From positions 1-30,433 of the forward strand of contig JAZGFI010000279.1 in NCBI GenBank assembly GCA_036479435.1: DNA of 30,433 nucleotides, read 5' to 3'. The DNA is from Planctomycetota bacterium (GTDB taxonomy: Bacteria; Planctomycetota; GCA-002687715; DRQF01). Each line of letters opens with the position of its first letter. The first letter of the stretch is position 1. The notes under the pieces were generated by a model. That model was not told where the DNA came from, made no database searches, and saw only the letters and a list, made by a program, of their open reading frames with translations. A program made the position numbers and the translations under genes. This document shows, in pieces, positions 2,959-17,729 of this stretch.

Positions 2959-4293
2959 ATGACCGAGACCGTGACCGACCCCAAAAACACCTCGACTGGA
3001 TTCAACCGGCGCCAATTCATGAAGAGTTCGGCCATCATGGCCCCGGCGGTTCTCGCTATCGGCCCTCGCGCCTTTGCGTCCGACGACAGCACTTTGAAGT
3101 TTGGCCTCATCGGTTGTGGTGGCCGCGGCACCGGCGCGGCTAACCAAGCTCTGCGGGCCGACAAAAACAACGTGCTCTGGGCGGTTGCCGATGCCTTTGA
3201 AGATCGTATCGGCGGGGCCATGGGTCTGCTCAGGGCCGAAGGCGAAAAACTCAAAGCCAAACACAACAGCAATCAGATTCAGGTGACACCGGAGCGCCAG
3301 TTCAGCGGTTTCGACGCCTATCAAAAGCTCATCGACTCCGGTGTCGATGTGGTGTTGTTGGCGACACCACCTTACTTCCGGCCCGAGCAGTTGCGCGCGG
3401 CGATTGATGCCGGCAAGCACGTCTTCAGCGAAAAACCCATGGCCGTTGACGGTCCAGGTGTGCGTTCGGTCATGGAATCCGCGAAAATTGCCAAAGAGAA
3501 AAACCTCAGCTTGGTGGCGGGGTTTTGCTGGCGTTTCAAAGAGAACGACCGGCAATTCGTTAAGCGGCTCCACGACGGGATCATCGGCGACATCCGCGCG
3601 GTCTACACTGACTACCTCACCGGCATCCTCAACACCCACCCTCGCAAAGAGGGTTGGACCGATATGGAATTCCAGTTGCGCAACTGGCAGCATTTCAATT
3701 GGCTGAGCGGCGACCACATCGCCGAGCAGGCCGTGCACAGTATCGACAAGATCAACTGGTTCATGAATGATGTCGCCCCTGTCAAAGCGATTTCCGTCGG
3801 GGGACGCCAATCCCGAGCAGATGTTCCTCGGACCGGTGACGTCTTCGACCACTTTGGTGTCATCTTTGAATACGCCGACGGGGCGCGTGGTTTTCACCTT
3901 GCCCGCCAAAGCGCTAACTGCTTTGGACGCAACACCGACTACATCATGGGCTCCAAGGGCATTGCCGATGTCAATAGTTGGGGACCCAAGCACGTGGTGA
4001 CTGGCGAGAACAACTGGACCGGTAAGCGCCGCCATATGAACGGCATGTACCAACAAGAACACGACGAGCTGTTTGCAGCGATCCGAAAGGGTGAGCCCAT
4101 CAACGACGGTGCCTGGATGGCCCAAAGCACCTTAATGGCGATCATGGCCCGGATGTCCGCTTACACCGGTAAGGATGTCAGCTTCGAAGCCGCTCTCAAT
4201 TCCAAAGAAGTGCTCGGGCCCAAAGTCGTCGCCCTTAACGGCGAAGCCCCCCGCATTGCCACCGCGATCCCCGGCCAAACGAAGTTCGCCTGA
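2959..4293 (+). CDS. Tat-exported Gfo/Idh/MocA family oxidoreductase
   Basis: Tat motif FNRRQFMK; Rossmann GLIGCGGRGTG; 'GKHVFSEKP'; RBS TAAGGA at 2946-2951. Confidence 0.9.
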   Translation: MTETVTDPKNTSTGFNRRQFMKSSAIMAPAVLAIGPRAFASDDSTLKFGLIGCGGRGTGAANQALRADKNNVLWAVADAFEDRIGGAMGLLRAEGEKLKAKHNSNQIQVTPERQFSGFDAYQKLIDSGVDVVLLATPPYFRPEQLRAAIDAGKHVFSEKPMAVDGPGVRSVMESAKIAKEKNLSLVAGFCWRFKENDRQFVKRLHDGIIGDIRAVYTDYLTGILNTHPRKEGWTDMEFQLRNWQHFNWLSGDHIAEQAVHSIDKINWFMNDVAPVKAISVGGRQSRADVPRTGDVFDHFGVIFEYADGARGFHLARQSANCFGRNTDYIMGSKGIADVNSWGPKHVVTGENNWTGKRRHMNGMYQQEHDELFAAIRKGEPINDGAWMAQSTLMAIMARMSAYTGKDVSFEAALNSKEVLGPKVVALNGEAPRIATAIPGQTKFA

Positions 4294-8684: not shown

Positions 8685-9334
8685 GGCTGATCCTTGCGGC
8701 CGGGTCGAATGAGGGCGACGCCAGTTTGCAGGAGCACCGCAAGATCGCGGCAGAAATTGCGCCGGAGTTTATAGCGTGCTGACAAGGCCAGTTTTTTGGG
8801 CAACAAATGTTCGCGATAAAAGGCCTCCGGGTCGTCCACTCCTCTGAGGATTTCGGCCTCGTCGAGCGACGCCAAAGTTGCAGGGTCTGTGAGCCCCGGT
8901 CGCACCGAAAGCAGTAGCGGCAAATGTGGGCCGTAGTCCGCGAGGAAACACGGCAACTCGGGCCGCGGCCCAACAAAGGACATTTGCCCGACGAGAATAT
9001 TCAGCATCTGCGGCCATTCGTCGATGCGGTAGCGCCGAACCCCCCCCCCGATCTTCGTGACGCGCGCATCGTCAGCTGCGGTCAAACCAGGCCCTGCCTG
9101 TCGGTTCATCGTGCGCAGCTTGTAGACCAGGAAAAAAGTGCCGTTTCGCCCGACGCGGGATTGGAAAAAAAACGCGGGGCCGCCGCCGCCACAACGGATC
9201 ACCAGAACGGTCAAGGCGAACAGTGGTAACAGCGATAAGAGCAAGGCGGCGGCCAAGCCAGTATCGAACAGGCGACAGATTGGGCGAAATCGCCCCCTCT
9301 CAAGATGGAGTAAGTCTTGCGGCAAAGCCATCAA
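8681..9334 (-). CDS. Bacterial sugar transferase (PglC/WbaP-type priming phosphoglycosyl transferase)
   Basis: 'RLFD', single hydrophobic segment, 'QSRVGRNG', 'YKLRTM', 'IDEWPQMLNILVGQMSFVGPRPE', 'VRPGLT'. Confidence 0.9.
   Translation of the reverse strand: MMALPQDLLHLERGRFRPICRLFDTGLAAALLLSLLPLFALTVLVIRCGGGGPAFFFQSRVGRNGTFFLVYKLRTMNRQAGPGLTAADDARVTKIGGGVRRYRIDEWPQMLNILVGQMSFVGPRPELPCFLADYGPHLPLLLSVRPGLTDPATLASLDEAEILRGVDDPEAFYREHLLPKKLALSARYKLRRNFCRDLAVLLQTGVALIRPGRKDQP
9040..9049 (-). repeat. G10 homopolymer tract inside the sugar-transferase CDS
   Basis: Ten consecutive C on the + strand; the coding strand reads ATC GGG GGG GGG GTT (I-G-G-G-V), currently in frame. Confidence 0.9.
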
Positions 9335-10521
9335 GACCGACTCCCCTTAGCCGATCGTCGATCGAGTTGCTTACGCAAACAAGTGATGACGCGATCGACC
9401 TGCGAGGCTTTTAGGCCGGGAAATAGCGGCAGGCTGAACACGCTTCGACCGCGCGCTTCGGCGATCGGAAACGACAGCTCGGGCTGTTCTTTTCTCCAGA
9501 TACTCATTTCGTGGAGAGGCTTGAAGTGCACCGACGTTTGGATGCCTTCGGCGCCCAATGCCAACAACAGGTCGTCGCGATGAACGGCGCTTTCGTCGTC
9601 CCGAAAACGCGGGCTAAAGAGGTGCCAGGCGTGGCGGCTGTTCTCAGGCTCAGGATCGGCGGGCAACTCCAGGCATTCAAGATCGGCCAGGCCTTCTCGG
9701 TACTGAGCGACAAGCTCGCGACGCTGGGCCTGAAAAGTCTCGACGCGCCCCAACTGGACCAAGCCGATGGCGGACAAGACATCGCTGGGATTGACTTTGA
9801 GTCCGTGGCGATGAAGGTCGTAGGCCCACGGTCTCGACTTGCCGTCGCGGCTCCAACTGTCGCGATCTAGCCCGTGGTTGCGCAAAGAGCGAAGTTCCTC
9901 GATGAGCTTTGGGTCCTCCGCGCACACCATGCCTCCTTCGCCCATCGTCAGGTTCTTAGAGGCATAGAAAGAAAAACAGGCCGCCGCGGTTTTTGTGCCC
10001 GGGGCCCCAAGTTCGCTTTTGGTTTCGAAGGCGTGTGCCGCGTCTTCGATGATCTTGAGGTCGTGCTTTTGGGCCAAAGCCACGAACTTAGCCATTTCCG
10101 CGGGGTGACCTCCAACGTGGACGACCACGATGGCTTTGGTGCGAGCCGTGATGGCGGCGGCGGCCGCTGCGGGGCAAAGATTGCCGGTGCCCAAGTCGAT
10201 ATCGGCGAAGATCGCTACGGCGCCGACGGCCGTGATGGCCTGCGCGGTGGCGGCAAAGGTGTAGGGCGTGGTGATGACTTCATCGCCTTGGGAGATCCCA
10301 ATCCCAAGCAAGGCGAGCGTCATGGCACTCGTGCCCGATGTCGTGGCGGCGCAGGATTTATCGCCACCTCCCAAATAAGCCGCTGCCGCCCGCTCGAATT
10401 CTGCGCTTACCGGTCCCGTCGTGAGCCAGCCAGAGCGGATGACCGCCGCGGCCGCTTCGACTTCTTCTTCGCCCAAAAAGGGCCGATGGAAGGGGATGGT
10501 CACATCTGAGGGATCAGGCAT
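9331..10521 (-). CDS. DegT/DnrJ/EryC1/StrS family PLP-dependent sugar aminotransferase
   Basis: 'IPFHRP', 'SGWLTTGP', 'GDEVITTPYTFAAT', 'IIEDAAHA', 'FSFYASKNLTMGEGG' (PLP Lys); start at ATG 10521 overlapping the upstream stop. Confidence 0.92.
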   Translation of the reverse strand: MPDPSDVTIPFHRPFLGEEEVEAAAAVIRSGWLTTGPVSAEFERAAAAYLGGGDKSCAATTSGTSAMTLALLGIGISQGDEVITTPYTFAATAQAITAVGAVAIFADIDLGTGNLCPAAAAAAITARTKAIVVVHVGGHPAEMAKFVALAQKHDLKIIEDAAHAFETKSELGAPGTKTAAACFSFYASKNLTMGEGGMVCAEDPKLIEELRSLRNHGLDRDSWSRDGKSRPWAYDLHRHGLKVNPSDVLSAIGLVQLGRVETFQAQRRELVAQYREGLADLECLELPADPEPENSRHAWHLFSPRFRDDESAVHRDDLLLALGAEGIQTSVHFKPLHEMSIWRKEQPELSFPIAEARGRSVFSLPLFPGLKASQVDRVITCLRKQLDRRSAKGSRS

Positions 10522-12322
10522 GTTGCGTGAGGATGTCCGGTGATTTCTGGTTTCGGTACAGCAAAAACTCGTGGCTCGCAAAGGCCGAAGTCGTCGTCAA
10601 AAAAGCACTGGCCTGTCGCCAGCACTTGCCTTTGCCCTCGGTCCTAGTCTGCGCCGCAATGCCCACTCGTTGCCGTTGCCAAGCTGGGCCCCAGAGCTCC
10701 TCAAATTCAGCTCGGTTGACGGGGTGCCAGGCTCGGCCAGGGACCGGCAGTCGAAGGTCATAGATCAGGATAATACCACCGGGTGCCACCACGCGTTGCG
10801 CCTCGGTCAGCAGTTTCGCTCGCTGGTCTTGGTCCAAAATGGAACTGAGAACCGTCGCCAACACCAAAAACTCAAAGGAAGAATCGGCGAAGGGAAGAGC
10901 CTGTCCCGAAGCTCGTGCGAGGAAGATCGGGCCGAGCCGTCGACGGGAACGCTGGAGGCGATCGCAGGAAAGGTCCACGCCGTAGTAGTCGACACTTCGA
11001 CCGGCCAAGTCAATGAAGTCGCGGGCGAAATCACCCTTGCCGATTCCCACTTCGAGCCCGCAGCCCATAGTTGATGCATGCAGGCCGGAATTTCCAAGGA
11101 GCGTGGCGAGGGCGCGGCGGCGGCGCTTGCCCTCTTCTTGGTCCGGATAGCGGGCGTTTGAGATGGACTGATCACGATCGGCAACCAGCCGGCCTTGAAT
11201 CTCGTCTTCGCCGCCAACGCCGACGGCCGGGATTTGCGGGGCCGGACGCATGGGGCCGCGCAGGACCCCGCAGAGAAAACCCATTCCGTAGGAAAACTGT
11301 TGGACGGCCGCGACGGCGATGACGACGGCGGCAAGAGAAATTCTGTGCCTCTGGCGGCGAACTCGCCGCGCCACTTTCAGATTGAGCAACAGCCAAAGGG
11401 CGCCGAGTAGTGATAGGGCAAGGCCGGCGGCGCTCGATAAAAACGCGGCGACGCCGAGGAGAGCCGTTGCCAACACCAAGGCGAAAGGGGCTAAGTGGCG
11501 AAGCCGAATCTCCTGCGGATAGCGCCACAAAACACGCGGTTTCCAAAGGCCAAACCCGAAGTACTGCTTCGCCACGGCAAGCAGCGAGGTGCGGGCTTCG
11601 TAGTGCGAAGCAAGAAGGGGATCAAGCATGACCTGACCGACGCGACGGCGCAGCCGGAACGAAAATTCGTCGTCTTGGTTGCGCGCCAAAGACTCGTCGA
11701 ATCCACCGAGCCGCGAAAAAGCTTCACGCGGCCAAGAGCCGAGGTAGACGGTGTCGACTTCGCGAGGGTTGACCGCCATCTCATGAGCGGCCGTTCCTTG
11801 GGCGCGGTAGGACGCTCCTCCGCTCGCGATGGGGTCGGCCGAAATCGCAGCGATGGCCTCAGCGATCTGTCCGTTTCCCTGTGGTCGCTGCGCGCCGCCG
11901 ATGCAGATGAGGGGGGAGGGCTCGTCATCACGGTTTTTGAACTTGAAGGTTCTCGCGGCGAAGAAACGATCGATCCGTCCCAAGTAGTCCGGGGCGATGC
12001 GAGTCCGGGCATCGACGCGAACGATGATCTTTCCGCGCGCTGACCTAAGCCCGCAGTTTAAAGCCGCGGCGGCGCTGCGGCCGGGGTGGACCAAGTGCCG
12101 GAGCCGGTCGTCCTCAAAGCCTGCAACTTGCGCCGCTGTGTTGTCAGGGCTTTGGCCCTCGATGATCAAGACCTCGAAAGAGGGTGCTGACTCATCGTGC
12201 GCCAAGATCGAGTCCAGACAGGCGCTGAGACGAGCGCGCTCATCCCACACCGGGATCAGGACCGAGATGCCGATCTCGGCCGATGATTTTTCTTTTGAGT
12301 TTCCTGTCGCGGCTGCATTCAT
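10514..12322 (-). CDS. GT2 glycosyltransferase (ExoA-like) fused to a C-terminal class I SAM-dependent methyltransferase
   Basis: N-terminal: 'ISVLIPV', 'LNCG', 'IVRVDA', 'VDTVYLG', 'GGFDESLARNQDDEF', then TM helices. C-terminal: 'LEVGIGKG', 'GVDLS', 'LPFADSSFE', 'RVVAPGGIILIYD'. One uninterrupted ORF. Confidence 0.85.
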   Translation of the reverse strand: MNAAATGNSKEKSSAEIGISVLIPVWDERARLSACLDSILAHDESAPSFEVLIIEGQSPDNTAAQVAGFEDDRLRHLVHPGRSAAAALNCGLRSARGKIIVRVDARTRIAPDYLGRIDRFFAARTFKFKNRDDEPSPLICIGGAQRPQGNGQIAEAIAAISADPIASGGASYRAQGTAAHEMAVNPREVDTVYLGSWPREAFSRLGGFDESLARNQDDEFSFRLRRRVGQVMLDPLLASHYEARTSLLAVAKQYFGFGLWKPRVLWRYPQEIRLRHLAPFALVLATALLGVAAFLSSAAGLALSLLGALWLLLNLKVARRVRRQRHRISLAAVVIAVAAVQQFSYGMGFLCGVLRGPMRPAPQIPAVGVGGEDEIQGRLVADRDQSISNARYPDQEEGKRRRRALATLLGNSGLHASTMGCGLEVGIGKGDFARDFIDLAGRSVDYYGVDLSCDRLQRSRRRLGPIFLARASGQALPFADSSFEFLVLATVLSSILDQDQRAKLLTEAQRVVAPGGIILIYDLRLPVPGRAWHPVNRAEFEELWGPAWQRQRVGIAAQTRTEGKGKCWRQASAFLTTTSAFASHEFLLYRNQKSPDILTQHA

Positions 12323-12376
12323 GGTCTCAGTGTAGCCAAGCTCACGCTATCTGTAATATTGCCGAGTTGGCGCATC

Positions 12377-12405
12377 TTGAAACCCATCCCCCTCTCGACC
12401 ATAGT
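12377..12405 (+). promoter_or_regulatory. Sigma70-like promoter for the cobalamin-riboswitch leader
   Basis: TTGAAA (12377-12382)-N17-CATAGT (12400-12405); the predicted start (~12412) falls just before riboswitch P1. Confidence 0.55.
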
Positions 12406-12414
12406 GCAGCCAAC

Positions 12415-12592
12415 GCTTTCGGAATCCAGGGAAGGTGGTGCAAATCCACCGCGGTCCCGCCGCTGTAAGTGGGGACGAGAGCGACCCGGTCATGATCATT
12501 CTATCTGGTCATGGCTGTTCAGCCACTGCGCTTAGCGTGGGAAGGCGGTCGCTTAAGGACGAACCACAAGCCAGAACACCTGATTCGAAAGC
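12415..12592 (+). ncRNA. Cobalamin (B12) riboswitch, AdoCbl/class-I-like with peripheral extension
   Basis: Conserved elements in the correct order: AGGGAA (12428-12433), GGTG-CAAAT-CC T-loop hairpin, CCCGCCGCTGTAA, GCCACTG (12522-12528), GGGAAGGC, B12-box AAGCCAGAACACCTG (12568-12582); closing stem GCTTTCGGAATC / GATTCGAAAGC. Confidence 0.93.
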
Positions 12593-12663
12593 TTCGCGAC
12601 CGAACCCCCGGGCACTTGGGGTTGGTGGCGCAGCTTCGTCGACAGGTCTCTTTGCGAAAAGAA

Positions 12664-12768
12664 CTCCTCGTCTTCAGCGCCGCGTTTCCGGCTTCTTCCC
12701 GACATTCGGTTATTGACCTGGTCCATTGCTTCTCGAGCACGCGTGATGCCGAGTTGTGAAGGAAGGAG
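12664..12768 (+). promoter_or_regulatory. Putative riboswitch expression platform: anti-Shine-Dalgarno / SD pairing
   Basis: CTCCTCGTCTTCA (12664-12676) is nearly complementary to TGAAGGAAGGAG (12757-12768), the RBS of the 12774 gene. No obvious intrinsic terminator lies between aptamer and gene. Confidence 0.45.
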
Positions 12769-12773
12769 CACTC

Positions 12774-13805
12774 ATGATTCGTTTTGCCTCCCAAGTTGTG
12801 TTGATTCTGGCCGTCTGCGTAACCCTCACCGCCGCGGCTTCGGCGCAAGCGCAGTTTGCGACTCAAGTCCTTAGCTTTAATCAAGGCGCCCTTGGCGGCG
12901 GGATTTTTAATCCCGCCAACGTCTTAGGCGGGCCCGATCCCAGCGATTTCCAGGGCGTTTTGAGCCTGGGTGAAGGTGGTGACGTAACCCTCGGTTTTGG
13001 GGTCACGATCGTTGACGGCCCTGGCGCTGACTTCAGCGTTTTTGAAAACGGCTTCGAGTTTCCCAGCGGCAGCGGCATGATTTTCTCTGAGGTGGTCTTC
13101 GTTGAGGTCTCGAGCAACGGCATCGACTTTGCTCGTTTCCCCACGACCTTTGGCGCGCCCTCCGTCCCGCACTTGCAGTTCAATGCGACGGCCATGGGAA
13201 GCTACGACGGCTTTGCCGGCGGCACCCCCGTTCTTGCCGACGTCGGGGTCAACTCCATCGATCCCGCCAACCCCGCGATCTCGGGTGGCGATGCCTTCGA
13301 TTTGGCGCGTTTGGCGAGCGATCCCCTGGTAACGAGCAACCTCGTGGACCTGCAGAACATCAGTTTTCTGCGTTTGGTGGACGTGGTGGCGGGGCAGGCG
13401 GTTGATTCTAGCGGCGTTACGGTCTACGACGATTTCGGCAGCCTTAATGATAGCGCCGACATCAACGCGGTTGCGGTTATCAACCACGCTGGAAACCAAA
13501 GCGCGCTCTCGCCGGATATCGTGATCGACTACGACGCCTTGGGCCGTATCGAAATCACGATCTTTGACCCGAGCGGCCTCGGCGCTCTGGTTTCGAGCAG
13601 CTTTATTCTCAGCGCGAATTTCATTCCGCTGACGACGACGCAGATCGCCCAGTTCTTTGATCTGGTCTCGATCCTTCCCAACGAGATCACCCTCCGCAGC
13701 AAGTTCGTGATTCCGGGCTCAACGATCCCGACTTTGGTCTTGGGCTCTTCAATTGAAAACCTGAGCCAAAAGAAAGTTGCGGCGCAGTTCTCGGTGCAAC
13801 CCTAA
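12774..13805 (+). CDS. Secreted cell-surface protein under B12-riboswitch control; candidate cobalamin-binding protein
   Basis: Sec signal ending ASAQA; motifs 'SLGEGGDVTLGF…DGPGADFSVFENGF…EVVFVEVSSNGIDFARFP…GGDAFDL…ISFLRLVD'; strong RBS AAGGAG. Confidence 0.75.
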   Translation: MIRFASQVVLILAVCVTLTAAASAQAQFATQVLSFNQGALGGGIFNPANVLGGPDPSDFQGVLSLGEGGDVTLGFGVTIVDGPGADFSVFENGFEFPSGSGMIFSEVVFVEVSSNGIDFARFPTTFGAPSVPHLQFNATAMGSYDGFAGGTPVLADVGVNSIDPANPAISGGDAFDLARLASDPLVTSNLVDLQNISFLRLVDVVAGQAVDSSGVTVYDDFGSLNDSADINAVAVINHAGNQSALSPDIVIDYDALGRIEITIFDPSGLGALVSSSFILSANFIPLTTTQIAQFFDLVSILPNEITLRSKFVIPGSTIPTLVLGSSIENLSQKKVAAQFSVQP

Positions 13806-15538
13806 TGAGAAACCTCGACGCTCTGTCGTTCTTTGCGGGGCTTTCGCTCTTTTTTGCGACTTGGCTACCGGCACAACACGTCTTGCTTGAGACGGCGGGC
13901 CAGGTCGGCGGAGAGCGTCGAGGTGCATCCTTGGCCGTCGTCGGCGATCTTGACGGCGACGGTTTTTCAGATTTCCTGCTCGGCACATCCCACAACCGAG
14001 TCGATTTGGTTTCTGGCGGAGACGGTTCGCTGATTCAGAGTTTCTTCGGGGATAGCCCTGGCGATGACTTCGGCGTGAGTGTCGTTGCTTTGGGCGATGT
14101 TGATTTCGACGGTTTTGGCGACTTCGCCATCGGTGCTTCGCAGCGCTCAAGCGGCGGGGCCGGCTACGTTCGAGTGTTCTCGGGAGGGCCGCGGCTGGCA
14201 CTCTACACGCATGGCGGCAACATGCCGGGGGATCGTTTCGGCGAGACTCTGGCTCTGCTCGGCGACGTTAGCCAAAACGGCATCCCCGATTTCGGCGTCG
14301 GGGCTCCGACGGCGGAACACGGCGGTAATCAGGTCGGAGACGTAACGGTTTACGACGGACTAACGGGGTTCTTAGTTCACAGCCTGGTGGGCATCGCGAG
14401 CGGAGATTTTTTCGGCACTGCGATGACGGGCCCCGGCGACCTCGACGGTGACGGCTTTGATGACATTCTCGTTGGAGCGCCGATCGCCAACGTGGTCGGT
14501 GGATCTTTCTTCGGCGGTTTTGGCGGCGTCTATTTGTATTCGGGGCTCAGCGGAAATCTGTTGAGCCAATGGGCAGGTGACAATCCAGACGATGCTTTCG
14601 GCGCCTCCTTAGCCGCACTAGGCGATGCCGACTTCGATGGCGTGGCCGAGTTCGCGGTGGGCATGCCGGGTTTCGATCAAGGCGGTTTCAATGCGGGAGC
14701 CGTTCGAATTCTGCAAATGAACGGGCCGGCCATTCAGACGATCGTTGGCAGTAGCGCGCAAGCGCGTTTTGGCTCGGTGCTTGCCGATGCGGTGGATCTC
14801 AATGGCGATCTGGTTCCCGAAATGTTCATTGGTTCGCCCGATTACAGTGGGGTCGCGCCGGCAAGCGGTCGCCTCGAAGTTTTCACGCCCTTGTTGCAGG
14901 CGAACTTTTGGCAGATCGATGGCGATGTTGTGTTCGGGAACATGGGGGCCGCCTTTTGTGCCGCCGACTTCGATGGTGACGGCTTGATCGAAGTGGCGGT
15001 GGCGGAGCCAGGAGCCGGCAGTCCGCTGGCATCAGGGCGTGTCCGTGTTTTTGGCGTGGAACGTGTTCTCGGTCCGGCGGCGCAAAGCCGCGTCGAAGAT
15101 TTAGGCGGCGATCGTGAAGACGTCCTTTTTGTGAACGGTTCCGCTGGAGGCGGAGCGCGCCGGGTCGACTTGTCTCCTTTGGAGTCTTTCCAAGTTGAGG
15201 TGGCGCAACCCAGTGCCAACGCGACCCCGGCGAGGTTCGTCCTTTTCGGCGTGATTGCGCGGCCGCGTTTCCACGATGCCTTTCCCTTGCCTTTAGGTTT
15301 GGGAGCGATGGCCTTTCCGCCCTGTGCCTTGCTTCCGAGTGCCGAGCCGACTTTGTTCGTGGTTGCTGACACGATCGGGGGCATGGCTTGCACACCCTTG
15401 GTCGTAGCCAGCCCCGCTCCATGGAGTGTCTTGGCCGGAGGGATCGCCTTTTCCGCCAGCTACACTCTGCAAGCGGTCATTGAAGAACAGCCAGGACAAC
15501 TCAAAGTTAGCAACGGGATCTTGATCCGCGTCTTGTGA
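13805..15538 (+). CDS. Secreted integrin-alpha-like FG-GAP seven-bladed β-propeller protein with a C-terminal domain
   Basis: Signal peptide; seven FG-GAP repeats with DxDxDG-type loops (GDLDGDG, GDVDFDG, GDVSQNG, GDLDGDG, GDADFDG, VDLNGDL, ADFDGDG); TAATG coupling with the upstream gene. Confidence 0.88.
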   Translation: MRNLDALSFFAGLSLFFATWLPAQHVLLETAGQVGGERRGASLAVVGDLDGDGFSDFLLGTSHNRVDLVSGGDGSLIQSFFGDSPGDDFGVSVVALGDVDFDGFGDFAIGASQRSSGGAGYVRVFSGGPRLALYTHGGNMPGDRFGETLALLGDVSQNGIPDFGVGAPTAEHGGNQVGDVTVYDGLTGFLVHSLVGIASGDFFGTAMTGPGDLDGDGFDDILVGAPIANVVGGSFFGGFGGVYLYSGLSGNLLSQWAGDNPDDAFGASLAALGDADFDGVAEFAVGMPGFDQGGFNAGAVRILQMNGPAIQTIVGSSAQARFGSVLADAVDLNGDLVPEMFIGSPDYSGVAPASGRLEVFTPLLQANFWQIDGDVVFGNMGAAFCAADFDGDGLIEVAVAEPGAGSPLASGRVRVFGVERVLGPAAQSRVEDLGGDREDVLFVNGSAGGGARRVDLSPLESFQVEVAQPSANATPARFVLFGVIARPRFHDAFPLPLGLGAMAFPPCALLPSAEPTLFVVADTIGGMACTPLVVASPAPWSVLAGGIAFSASYTLQAVIEEQPGQLKVSNGILIRVL

Positions 15539-15615
15539 ACGCGGTGTTGATCCGCGTTCTGTAAACGGGATCTTGATCCGCGTTCTGTAAACGGGATCTT
15601 AATCCGCGTTCTGTA
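15512..15615 (+). repeat. Tandem repeat, 4 x 26 bp (consensus AACGGGATCTTGATCCGCGTTCTGTA), each unit self-complementary
   Basis: Units start at 15512, 15538, 15564 and 15590; unit 1 is the last 8 codons and stop of the FG-GAP gene. Confidence 0.92.
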
Positions 15616-15794
15616 GACATGGTGCCAACCCATCTTGTTCAACTCAGAGCCGTTTTGAGTTTCATGCCAAGCTGAAGTCCCTTAGGAGTAAAGTCTTGCG
15701 GGCGACGCGGCTAAGCGCGCGGGCCGAAGCCGACTATCGCCTTCGAGCCAGCGCCTAAGACTGATAGAGTGTGGCTCACCGACGAGGTATCCCG

Positions 15795-17729
15795 ATGAGA
15801 AGCCCACGATTCATGTCCCTTTCTTGCCGAGTTTTTCTAATCGTCTGCCTCGGCACCTTGGGTCTGAGTTGCGTCTCATCGTCAGTTCGCGCCCAGTTTT
15901 TTCCGACCGGGGTGGTGGCAGAGAACATGAGCCCTTCGGGCAGCCTCGTGCGGCCCATTGCCATGGAGTTCTTGCCAGACGGCAGGCTCTTAATCGCCGA
16001 GCATCACAGTGGTCGGATCTTGAGCTGGTCGCGCGGTGCCCTTCGGACTGTGGGCACCGTTGAGAACCTCGTGAACGGGCTAGAACATGGATTGCTTGGG
16101 ATGGCGCTGCACCCGCAGTTTCCACGACGGCCTTTCCTCTATCTCTACTTGACTCACGACATCGGTGGTGGCGTTCCGGATAAGCGCGTTGTTCGCTATC
16201 GCCTAAAGGGAGACTTGGCTTTTGGGGGCCAAGGCGAGTTGGAGATGGTCGAGCGCTACGAAGTGCTGACTGGTATCCCGGCTCCTGTCGATTTGCACGA
16301 CGGTGGTGGCTTGCGTTTTGGGCCCGACGGATGCCTCTACCTTGCGGTTGGCGATGCGACGATGTCCTGCGAGGCGCAGAACGTGAACTCGCCATTCGGG
16401 AAGATCCTGCGCATGGATGTGCGCGGTTTGCCAAGGTCAGGCCCCCCTCCGCCAATCCTTGATCTTGTTCCGGCCGGAGGTAACCCTCTCGGCGGATCGA
16501 CGGACATCTCGCAGCTCGTCTTCGCGATGGGCCTGCGCAACCCCTTTCGCTTCAGCATCGATCCCCTTAGCGGTACCCTCATCATCGCTGACGTTGGCGA
16601 GAACACTTGGGTAGAGATCAATTTTTGCACCGGCGGCGAGAATTTCGGGTGGCCCTGGTTTGAAGGTCCCGCTCCTTTTTCGACTTGCCCCCCGGGACCG
16701 GTTCCCAGCAACTTGACGGCCCCCGTTGTTGCGGGCGCGCATGGCGGCAGCTTGAGCTTTGCCGCGGCCGTGCCCTTTGCTGGTATCTACCACAACCGTT
16801 ACGGCGCCCGCTTTAACTTTGGCCCGGCTTATGAAGGTTCGCTGTTTATTGCCGACCTGGGGATTCCCACCGACATTTTTCGCTTGGATTTCGACGGTCA
16901 GGATTGGAACATCGCGCCCGCGCTGCCCGGGCAGGCCAACCCGAACGTTTGGGGTTTTTCGTTGTTTCCGACGGACTGCCAGATCGGCCCCGACGGCGCT
17001 TTTTGGCAGCTGACATTCCTCGACGGTGATGTGCGTCGGACGCGCCCCGAGGCCGGTGGCACTCAGTTGACGATCAAGAGCGGTCAAAGCCAAAAAGGCA
17101 ACGCGGGTACCCTGTCCTTCGTGCCCATGGAAGTCGAGCTGACGGATCTCAACAATCAAGCCCTCGCTAACGAGATCGTGTTTTTCACCATCGAACGTGG
17201 GGGCGGCCAGATCACGGCGTCGGCTCTGACGGATGCCAATGGCCGGGCGACGGTCTCCTATCGATTTTCGGACACTTGGACCGGAGAGCACCCCGAGATC
17301 ATCGCCTGGCACGAGGGCGGTGAGCCCCAACGGTTTTCTTTTGAATGGCGTGGCTTAGAGACCCTGCTCGCCACCGCCGCGAAGTACTTGTTCAAATTTC
17401 GGCACAGCGAAGCGAACTCGCCGGTGGTTGCGGTGATCGACATCGCGCGCACGACGCCCGTGCTTACGGTACCCGCGGGAGAAATTTGGACGAGTTTACT
17501 AGCTCCACTACCGAGCTTGATCGTCTTGGGTGATGGTTTTGGATTTGTCGGTCCGCAGAACAGAGGTTTCGTGACGGATGCCGCGGGCCAACGCCTGATC
17601 GAGTTCAAGGTGCCGCCGACTTTGACGGGACAAGTCATCATTCAAGCCTACGCGATCGACTTCGCGGCGAGCACGGCCGAAGAAGTCACGGTTTCCAATC
17701 CGGTGACGCTGACGTTGATCAGGCGCTAA
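15795..17729 (+). CDS. Secreted PQQ-dependent glucose/sorbosone dehydrogenase-like (GSDH) β-propeller with an Ig-like (Big_1-type) domain and a C-terminal domain
   Basis: 'FLPDGRLLIAE', 'EHGLLGMALHPQF', 'HDGGGLRFGPDG', 'GLRNPFRF', 'NFGWP'; Ig-like 'SGQSQKG…VELTD…TDANGRATV'. Start at ATG 15795 (GAGG RBS); 15771 and 15813 are alternatives. Confidence 0.85.
   Translation: MRSPRFMSLSCRVFLIVCLGTLGLSCVSSSVRAQFFPTGVVAENMSPSGSLVRPIAMEFLPDGRLLIAEHHSGRILSWSRGALRTVGTVENLVNGLEHGLLGMALHPQFPRRPFLYLYLTHDIGGGVPDKRVVRYRLKGDLAFGGQGELEMVERYEVLTGIPAPVDLHDGGGLRFGPDGCLYLAVGDATMSCEAQNVNSPFGKILRMDVRGLPRSGPPPPILDLVPAGGNPLGGSTDISQLVFAMGLRNPFRFSIDPLSGTLIIADVGENTWVEINFCTGGENFGWPWFEGPAPFSTCPPGPVPSNLTAPVVAGAHGGSLSFAAAVPFAGIYHNRYGARFNFGPAYEGSLFIADLGIPTDIFRLDFDGQDWNIAPALPGQANPNVWGFSLFPTDCQIGPDGAFWQLTFLDGDVRRTRPEAGGTQLTIKSGQSQKGNAGTLSFVPMEVELTDLNNQALANEIVFFTIERGGGQITASALTDANGRATVSYRFSDTWTGEHPEIIAWHEGGEPQRFSFEWRGLETLLATAAKYLFKFRHSEANSPVVAVIDIARTTPVLTVPAGEIWTSLLAPLPSLIVLGDGFGFVGPQNRGFVTDAAGQRLIEFKVPPTLTGQVIIQAYAIDFAASTAEEVTVSNPVTLTLIRR

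Follow-up and report, generated by a model that had tools for sequence, protein, structure and literature searches.

Extracellular capture of vitamin B12 by accessory binding proteins has so far been a Bacteroides story. In Bacteroides thetaiotaomicron, the BtuH group comprises BtuH1 (BT1488), BtuH2 (BT1956; PDB code 7BIZ) and the H-domain of BtuG1/BtuGH (BT1490; 8BLW chain B). Passages of PMC8941943 and PMC13616437 assign residues N399, F401 and E406 of BtuH2 to the nucleotide-loop phosphate and metal site and to contacts with the dimethylbenzimidazole base, and the portion of PMC13616437, a 2026 review, that treats the distribution of BtuH lists Bacteroidota and three Firmicutes and gives its role as unknown. 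BtuJ, of the DUF4465 family (PF14717), is presented in excerpts of PMC13398666 as an augmented β-jelly-roll, an exported B12 scavenger linked to riboswitches; the same excerpts call DUF4465 proteins demonstrated B12 binders and place the family beyond Bacteroidota, including in a planctomycete protein. Here we describe an operon from a Planctomycetota bacterium (GenBank assembly GCA_036479435.1, contig JAZGFI010000279.1; the 30,433 nucleotides analysed are called the window) in which a cobalamin riboswitch is followed by two open reading frames (ORFs) for predicted exported proteins, ORF1 and ORF2. ORF1 carries a BtuH-type domain, in a new phylum and a new architecture, beside a new partner and without an outer-membrane transporter linked to it. 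In searches of the open-access literature, leaving aside what the BtuH and DUF4465 papers list in their supplements, we found neither BtuH-type proteins described for Planctomycetota, one preprint mentioning only DUF4465 in this phylum, nor FG-GAP proteins, such as ORF2, described under cobalamin riboswitches.

The operon opens with a complete cobalamin riboswitch, as proposed in a first-pass annotation of this DNA. The cmscan match spans positions 1-189 of the 189 in the RF00174 model, exceeds the curated gathering threshold of 31.5 bits (E 6e-18; Table 1) and has no other Rfam match beside it in the 30.4-kb window. The ORF list starts ORF1 at a GTG (12756..13805), but an in-frame ATG at 12774, 5 nt past the Shine-Dalgarno (SD) sequence AAGGAAGGAG, gives the 343-aa protein considered here. 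Its TAA (13803-13805) and the ATG of ORF2 (13805-13807) overlap by one base, and the TAATG coupling read earlier is indeed present. By eye, the N-termini of ORF1 (MIRFASQVVLILAVCVTLTAAASAQA) and ORF2 (MRNLDALSFFAGLSLFFATWLPAQ) both look like Sec signals, in agreement with the signal peptides previously assigned to them.

Following a signal peptide of ~24 residues (1-24, also judged by eye), ORF1 consists of a BtuH-type jelly-roll domain (residues 25-241; 12846-13496) and an immunoglobulin (Ig)-like domain (residues 244-343; 13503-13802). Both are seen in the AlphaFold2 model made from the family alignment, which has a predicted local distance difference test score of 94 and a predicted template modelling (TM) score of 0.90. 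The five motifs noted in the first pass, SLGxGG, DFxVFEN, EVSSNG, GGDAFDL and FLRLVD, are all in the translation and coincide with columns that are invariant, or almost so, in an alignment of 47 members. Database searches with the single protein returned little: nothing in Pfam even at E ≤ 10, nothing in the PDB by phmmer, and in NCBIfam only a sub-threshold match to the LIC_13355 family lipoprotein (35.8 vs 120 bits). There are more than 286 close homologues of ~340 aa, and all those with a named source are hypothetical proteins, mostly from Planctomycetota metagenome-assembled genomes (MAGs). A search of 1.84 billion representatives with the ORF1 profile returned 3,636 proteins at E ≤ 1e-3 and 2,510 at E ≤ 1e-10, many of them multi-domain, and structural neighbours of the domain occur in Verrucomicrobiota, Sumerlaeota and Pseudomonadota.

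The fold of ORF1 is that of the C-terminal globular domain of BtuH2. An exhaustive structural search against 48,161 PDB representatives ranked BtuH2 of B. thetaiotaomicron first (7biz_B, chain residues 317-593; Z 13.7, RMSD 2.9 over 162 residues) and the fused H-domain of BtuG1 second (8blw_B, residues 388-660; Z 13.0, 173 residues aligned), with the next fold, the carbohydrate-binding module CBM32 of AlyQ, at Z 9.0. Foldseek had placed endo-β-N-acetylglucosaminidases above 8blw_B, but with global TM-scores of 0.19-0.33, and we set this likeness aside, as the exhaustive search put BtuH first; the Foldseek global superpositions are poor because ORF1 has two domains. The earlier suggestion of a comparison with BtuJ did not hold up: ORF1 has no PF14717 match even at E ≤ 10, and the DUF4465/BtuJ structures 9FCT, 9I2L and 9HMU lie outside the top 50 of the structural list, beyond which similarity is possible. 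DUF4465 resembles ORF1 in being an augmented jelly-roll and occurs in Bacteroidales next to the ORF1-type domain or fused to it; the two are separate families.

Profile comparison supports the same relationship. The sole PDB match of the ORF1-family profile in hmmsearch is 8blw_B residues 390-473 (E 0.027). For hhalign we used ten BtuH domains from Bacteroidales genomes, anchored to the 8blw_B and 7biz_A structures: L154 is BtuGH (6e-121 to 8blw_B), L163 is BtuH1-like (3e-71 to 8blw_B, 6e-49 to 7biz_A), and the anchor domains also match 7biz_A at 2e-47 (L numbers are our locus identifiers). Over 95 columns the ORF1 family aligned to this set with a probability of 92.1% (E 6e-7), which, together with the structural ranking, supports the BtuH-type resemblance noted in the first pass. 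SLG-GG-TLGF of ORF1 falls on SLG-GGY-FGFDH of BtuH, and DFxVFENxF...AEVxFVEV on DFxIxGNAF...SEPGIVxV. Over this second stretch the 7BIZ sequence reads GNAFDGSSEPG, which fits the published N399, F401 and E406, and these three residues align with N92, F94 and E106 of ORF1, invariant in the 47 family members.

ORF1 agrees with the BtuH proteins in fold, profile, the N/F/E site and the upstream riboswitch, and differs from them in several ways. Identity is only 17-20%, undetected by single-sequence search; BtuH domains contain an insertion of ~100 residues that ORF1 does not have; the Ig-like domain stands at the C-terminus of ORF1 but at the N-terminus of BtuH; ORF1 is not a lipoprotein, unlike the B. 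thetaiotaomicron BtuH proteins, which the review (PMC13616437) describes as surface lipoproteins; and, unlike BtuH loci, the ORF1 locus has no btuB or btuG neighbour.

Association with the riboswitch is conserved. A search for related loci returned 58, of which L001-L048 are clear family members from the Planctomycetota set; 47 of these 48 (not L018) were scanned with Rfam, and 44 are informative, L001, L006, L015 and L018 having been left out for too little upstream DNA. RF00174 lies upstream of the ORF1 homologue and on its strand in 37 of the 44, under 300 nt from the estimated start in 35 and 1.4-1.6 kb upstream in two (L019, L048); L034 has one riboswitch per direction. Taken with the Bacteroidales loci below, this bears out the expectation that homologues recur downstream of B12 riboswitches. 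Within the window's own taxonomic family the order riboswitch then ORF1 homologue is found in 8/9 genomes, and in the ninth (G082) the riboswitch precedes PBP_2 and FecCD genes. One locus, L043, also has a thiamine pyrophosphate riboswitch (4166-4261, -), 1.4 kb upstream of its cobalamin riboswitch and on the other strand.

The domain is also found in Bacteroidales, the order that holds L056, where the ORF1 profile matches proteins in 40 of the 81 genomes with E values down to 3e-29. These proteins consist of the domain and a type IX secretion system (T9SS) tail, and they are the closest ORF1 relatives outside Planctomycetota (3e-29 over profile positions ~55-240). Their size is that of ORF1 (~330-350 aa), the domain has no Pfam family in them either, and a Por_Secre_tail stands in place of the Ig-like domain of ORF1; 560-aa forms are fused to DUF4465. 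We examined 12 of the 25 best Bacteroidales loci and scanned the neighbours in six. RF00174 is upstream on the same strand in 11 of the 12, and the usual order in the six is riboswitch, DUF4465, ORF1-like gene, TonB-dependent receptor and DUF5074, with variants in which DUF4465 is fused to the ORF1-like gene or the receptor comes first. By its matches to 8BMX (2e-80) and 8P97 (7e-82), PDB codes named in passages of PMC10404256, the DUF5074 protein is homologous to BtuG. The ORF1-type domain accordingly accompanies a cobalamin riboswitch in two phyla and in one of them sits inside canonical btuB-btuG loci, so that the expected adjacency to btuB stands for Bacteroidales; ORF1 itself, in contrast, is not in a DUF4465-TonB receptor-BtuG operon. 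Among the Bacteroidales loci, L079, L086, L090 and L103:3405-5054 encode T9SS-tailed fusions of the ORF1-type domain with DUF4465, one with two DUF4465 copies. Atlas clusters also contain fusions of the ORF1-type domain with DUF4430, which we take to be a transcobalamin-like C-terminal domain.

What follows ORF1 varies among Planctomycetota. Neighbour counts there are approximate (gene calls were based on GC content at third codon positions, and L007, L008 and the DegT gene of the window, for example, were miscalled) and were corrected where Pfam or phmmer was applied. A ~400-aa YVTN propeller fills the slot in five loci (TIGR02276; 1L0Q at 3.7e-8) and a protein that we call family X in six. 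By hhalign, family X matches the YVTN group at 83.5%, and the YVTN partner proteins score an equivocal 44% against BtuG. Family X proteins have 413-585 aa and no Pfam or NCBIfam match and are encoded under cobalamin riboswitches, either directly after an ORF1 homologue or divergently from it with a riboswitch of their own (L011:6926-8218, L013, L014, L040, L030:3029-5862(-), L034:3271-4665(-), L042, L016 and L051:1477-2715). Genes for an FecCD-type permease and a PBP_2 protein (BtuC/BtuF-like) come after the ORF1 homologue, on its strand, in L007:7193-11240 and L008:3144-5799; this is the only direct link between the family and a transporter that we found in Planctomycetota.

Other arrangements were seen at the edges of the family. 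Riboswitch-headed operons of other Planctomycetota MAGs encode giant proteins that have a PKD domain and end in an ORF1-like domain (L049:1640-6061, 1,474 aa; L051:2722-6972, 1,417 aa, where family X is the first gene), a layout that mirrors the PKD-plus-H-domain organisation of BtuH2. L037 and L046 are homologues with the N-terminal domain only (42-45% identity), without a riboswitch, on contigs labelled as Thermoplasmatota/Thermoplasmata archaeon MAGs; they may reflect mis-binning or gene transfer. In other families of the window's order (L142-L151, from relatives G090-G097, G099 and G101; for example L142:811-5048), the single cobalamin riboswitch precedes a 476-515-aa protein without a Pfam family, distantly related to the YVTN partner proteins, and the next gene encodes a 711-834-aa protein with an FGE-sulfatase domain (PF03781) in 6/6 cases tested. 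These genes are a second unexplained B12-regulated exported pair.

ORF2 is a seven-bladed FG-GAP β-propeller, in line with the first-pass annotation. It matches FG-GAP at 1.3e-27 in five stretches, and in its AlphaFold2 model 28 strands between residues 26 and 417 make up seven four-stranded blades. The propeller (~residues 25-420; 13877-15064) is followed by a C-terminal thigh-like β-sandwich (~430-577; 15092-15535), which is the integrin-α arrangement. Like BtuG, ORF2 is a predicted exported seven-bladed propeller encoded beside a BtuH-type domain under a B12 riboswitch. Unlike BtuG, the lid of BtuB, which is of the DUF5074/YncE type, it belongs to the FG-GAP/integrin-α family and has no BtuB to cap, and the seven blades signify a common fold class only. 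BtuG entries are outside the top 50 of the ORF2 structural list, and similarity may exist beyond it. Full-length ORF2 homologues (33-41% identity) follow ORF1 in all six same-family relatives with enough DNA, so that with the window's own genome the pair occurs in 7/7. A predicted complex of ORF2 (24-577) with ORF1 (25-343) gave ipSAE values of 0.00 and 0.00 in a run without controls and weighs neither way. On balance, we put a real ORF1-ORF2 partnership at an even chance.

The organism is B12-dependent. Its genome (5.47 Mb in 299 contigs, 92% complete) encodes a five-module MetH, a methylmalonyl-CoA mutase, an IcmF-like fused mutase and a B12-radical-SAM protein, and three markers of B12 synthesis, CobS, CobD/CbiB and CbiC, were not found in this 92%-complete assembly. 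No DUF4465 (PF14717) was found in it either, and the riboswitch of the ORF1 operon is its only RF00174 match among the candidates scored. The statement that the system comes with no transporter is right for the operon, which has no transporter gene, and wrong for the genome: elsewhere it encodes one TonB-dependent receptor, most like heme receptors and adjoining tonB, and a PBP_2-FecCD-ABC operon together with an orphan PBP_2, both away from the ORF1 operon. The PBP_2 and FecCD proteins are the best matches to those linked to the ORF1 homologue in L008. Another contig of this genome, C177 (1579-3396; locus L167), encodes an exported protein of 606 aa in which the N-terminal half of the ORF1 domain occurs twice, in degenerate form, together with an SdrD_B domain; no riboswitch is nearby.

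We consider it likely that ORF1 is a riboswitch-controlled scavenger, predicted to bind cobamides, and every computational test proposed in the first-pass annotation supported its interpretation. When intracellular cobamide is low, the unliganded riboswitch would allow ORF1 and ORF2 to be co-translated and exported by Sec. ORF1 would be the binder, holding cobamide in the BtuH-type cleft of its 215-residue augmented jelly-roll, carried on the Ig-like domain. ORF2 may be a partner particular to this lineage, serving as anchor or scaffold or else as a second station in the hand-over, in the place taken by YVTN or family X proteins in other Planctomycetota and by BtuG in Bacteroidota. Captured cobamide would pass to an uptake system whose genes lie elsewhere, the likeliest being the PBP_2-FecCD-ABC operon (BtuFCD-type) on contig C66, and plentiful cobamide would, by binding the riboswitch, turn the operon off.

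Several observations weigh against this proposal. The hhalign match is confined to the first 95 columns, and the C-terminal half alone scores a non-significant 0.8-5.5%. There is no significant alignment over D522, S582 and E584 of BtuH2 or over the corrin contacts H476, Y510, W511 and W577; in the non-significant C-terminal alignment, the invariant D176 falls on the FD of FDIDWAVD and SADxDAV on GEiSTEV. The ORF1 signal peptide has no conserved lipobox cysteine, C15 not being conserved in the 47-member alignment. RF00174 is on the opposite strand in three of the 44 informative loci (L016, L030, L042) and missing from four (L004, L021, L037, L046); in L030 the opposite-strand riboswitch heads a divergent family X gene, and L016 and L042 also carry family X there. 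The riboswitch counts per genome, that of the organism included, rest on the 74-150 of ~350 first-look candidates that were scored. Homology of ORF2 to BtuG was not detected (hhalign 0.6% against BtuG homologues, a set with members anchored to the BtuG2 and BtuG3 structures at ~1e-80). An FG-GAP gene follows ORF1 in only two of the 48 loci of the Planctomycetota set and is not its neighbour outside the family-level clade. Finally, phmmer with six receptor queries over ~600 kb of Planctomycetota loci and the window found no linked TonB-dependent receptor, a search whose sensitivity to very divergent receptors is unproven; in these loci the anticipated link to btuB did not materialise.

One alternative is that ORF1 binds B12 alone and has only the transcript in common with ORF2, which would be an unrelated adhesion or surface protein. 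FG-GAP proteins are abundant in Planctomycetota (868 matches at E ≤ 1e-20 among the candidates scored), ORF2 is no detectable homologue of BtuG, and ORF1 homologues elsewhere precede a diphthamide-synthase-like gene, a LysR gene, a thioredoxin-TPR gene or no same-strand gene at all. We nevertheless find this somewhat improbable, since the two genes remain paired, overlapping or closely spaced, in all seven same-family genomes despite only 33-50% protein identity, and other lineages put the YVTN and family X proteins, another propeller type, in the same slot; BtuG-BtuH fusions are also noted in a portion of the Bacteroides review (PMC13616437). The pair could instead be periplasmic, a cobamide store or chaperone feeding BtuF-BtuCD rather than a surface capture system. 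Plain Sec signals on ORF1 and ORF2, without lipobox, T9SS tail or other sorting signal, would fit this, as would the operons of L007 and L008 and the result of the receptor search. All relatives that have been characterised, however, are secreted or exposed at the surface (BtuH, the Bacteroidales forms with T9SS tails, and the giant PKD proteins of L049 and L051), and proteins that combine integrin-like propellers with Ig-like domains typically belong to the cell surface, so that we regard a periplasmic role as unlikely.

It is far less probable still that ORF1 is a CBM32/discoidin-like carbohydrate-binding module in an operon for glycan adhesion or uptake whose riboswitch reflects B12 status indirectly. 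BtuH domains stand 4 Z units above every carbohydrate-binding module in the structural search, the ORF1 profile is homologous to BtuH and to no carbohydrate-binding-module family in Pfam, and the riboswitch linkage recurs in two phyla, in btuB-btuG loci and alongside DUF4465 fusions; Atlas scores are also under the 0.9 lead threshold.

How the riboswitch would act on the operon is suggested by its homologues. The distance from aptamer to start codon is 14-80 nt in most of them, and such short leaders suggest control at translation initiation. An anti-SD element claimed in the first pass does no better than chance in the window: in the minimum-energy fold of 12585-12790 the stretch CUUCUUCC (12691-12699) does pair with the SD, but with a fold z-score of -0.26, and the duplex between linker and SD has z = -0.03, with z < -1.64 in only 6 of 36 homologous leaders. 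There is one weak terminator-like hairpin at 12621-12643, in a region with eight such sites against 6.0 +/- 2.5 expected. About 12 of the 36 homologous leaders (among them L024, L027, L032, L036, L039, L041, L044, L045 and L047) have a GACGCC-like motif no more than ~18 nt ahead of the start codon, with a counterpart in the window, GATGCC at 12745-12751; possibly the motif supplies the 3' side of a kissing loop or riboswitch helix by which the ribosome-binding site is masked. Of the promoter proposed earlier, the match is real and lies just 5' of the aptamer, but as the single sigma-70-like match in 12250-15900 it is no better than shuffled sequence (0.8 +/- 0.9). The count is not above chance, and only the placement is suggestive of a promoter.

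Table 1 Features of the riboswitch-headed operon in the window.
Feature	Position	Strand	Remarks
Promoter-like site TTGAAA-17 nt-CATAGT	12377..12405	+	directly 5' of aptamer; 9/12 bases
Cobalamin riboswitch aptamer, RF00174	12405..12601	+	full model, 78.4 bits
Leader/expression platform, SD AAGGAAGGAG at 12759-12768	12602..12773	+	sequence reading
ORF1, 343-aa exported protein	12774..13805	+	
ORF2, 577-aa exported integrin-α-like protein	13805..15538	+	start overlaps ORF1 stop
ORF3, 652-aa exported glucose/sorbosone-dehydrogenase-like propeller + Big_1 domain	15771..17729	+	GSDH 4.7e-37

ORF3 lies on the same strand 232 nt beyond ORF2, and the terminator scan found no terminator-like site between them. 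A homologue follows the ORF1-ORF2 pair in only one of six relatives (G084), and ORF3 is probably not a core part of the operon. Divergently upstream of the riboswitch (9331-12322, -) are genes for a 602-aa fusion of a family 2 glycosyltransferase (GT2) with a class-I methyltransferase and for a DegT/DnrJ/EryC1 aminotransferase, both envelope-glycan genes that show no obvious connection with B12.

The ORF1 operon is the only riboswitch target found in a B12-dependent planctomycete without the three B12-synthesis markers tested, and the locus is a testable handle on cobamide import in Planctomycetota. A broader picture, which we offer as speculative and somewhat doubtful, is that this order of Planctomycetota acquires cobamides without a BtuB-type receptor, through a BtuH-type binder under a single riboswitch and an interchangeable propeller (integrin-like FG-GAP, YVTN or family X) that together feed a BtuFCD-type importer. 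In the sister families the kit would be the YVTN-like protein with the FGE-sulfatase-domain protein, and the route would cross the unusual planctomycetal envelope. The integrin-like propeller, of a kind not known to have been linked to B12 before, would then be a new B12-handling or docking protein, and the ORF1-type domain a widespread, unannotated B12-binding family, with at least 2,500 clusters at 50% identity and no Pfam model. For the family itself, the BtuH-type domain belongs to a far larger unannotated group (3,636 representative clusters), a candidate for a Pfam-level family, and ORF1 offers binding studies an uncomplicated soluble protein of the BtuH type. Should ORF2 or the proteins found in its place take part, they would constitute a new class of B12-handling propeller.

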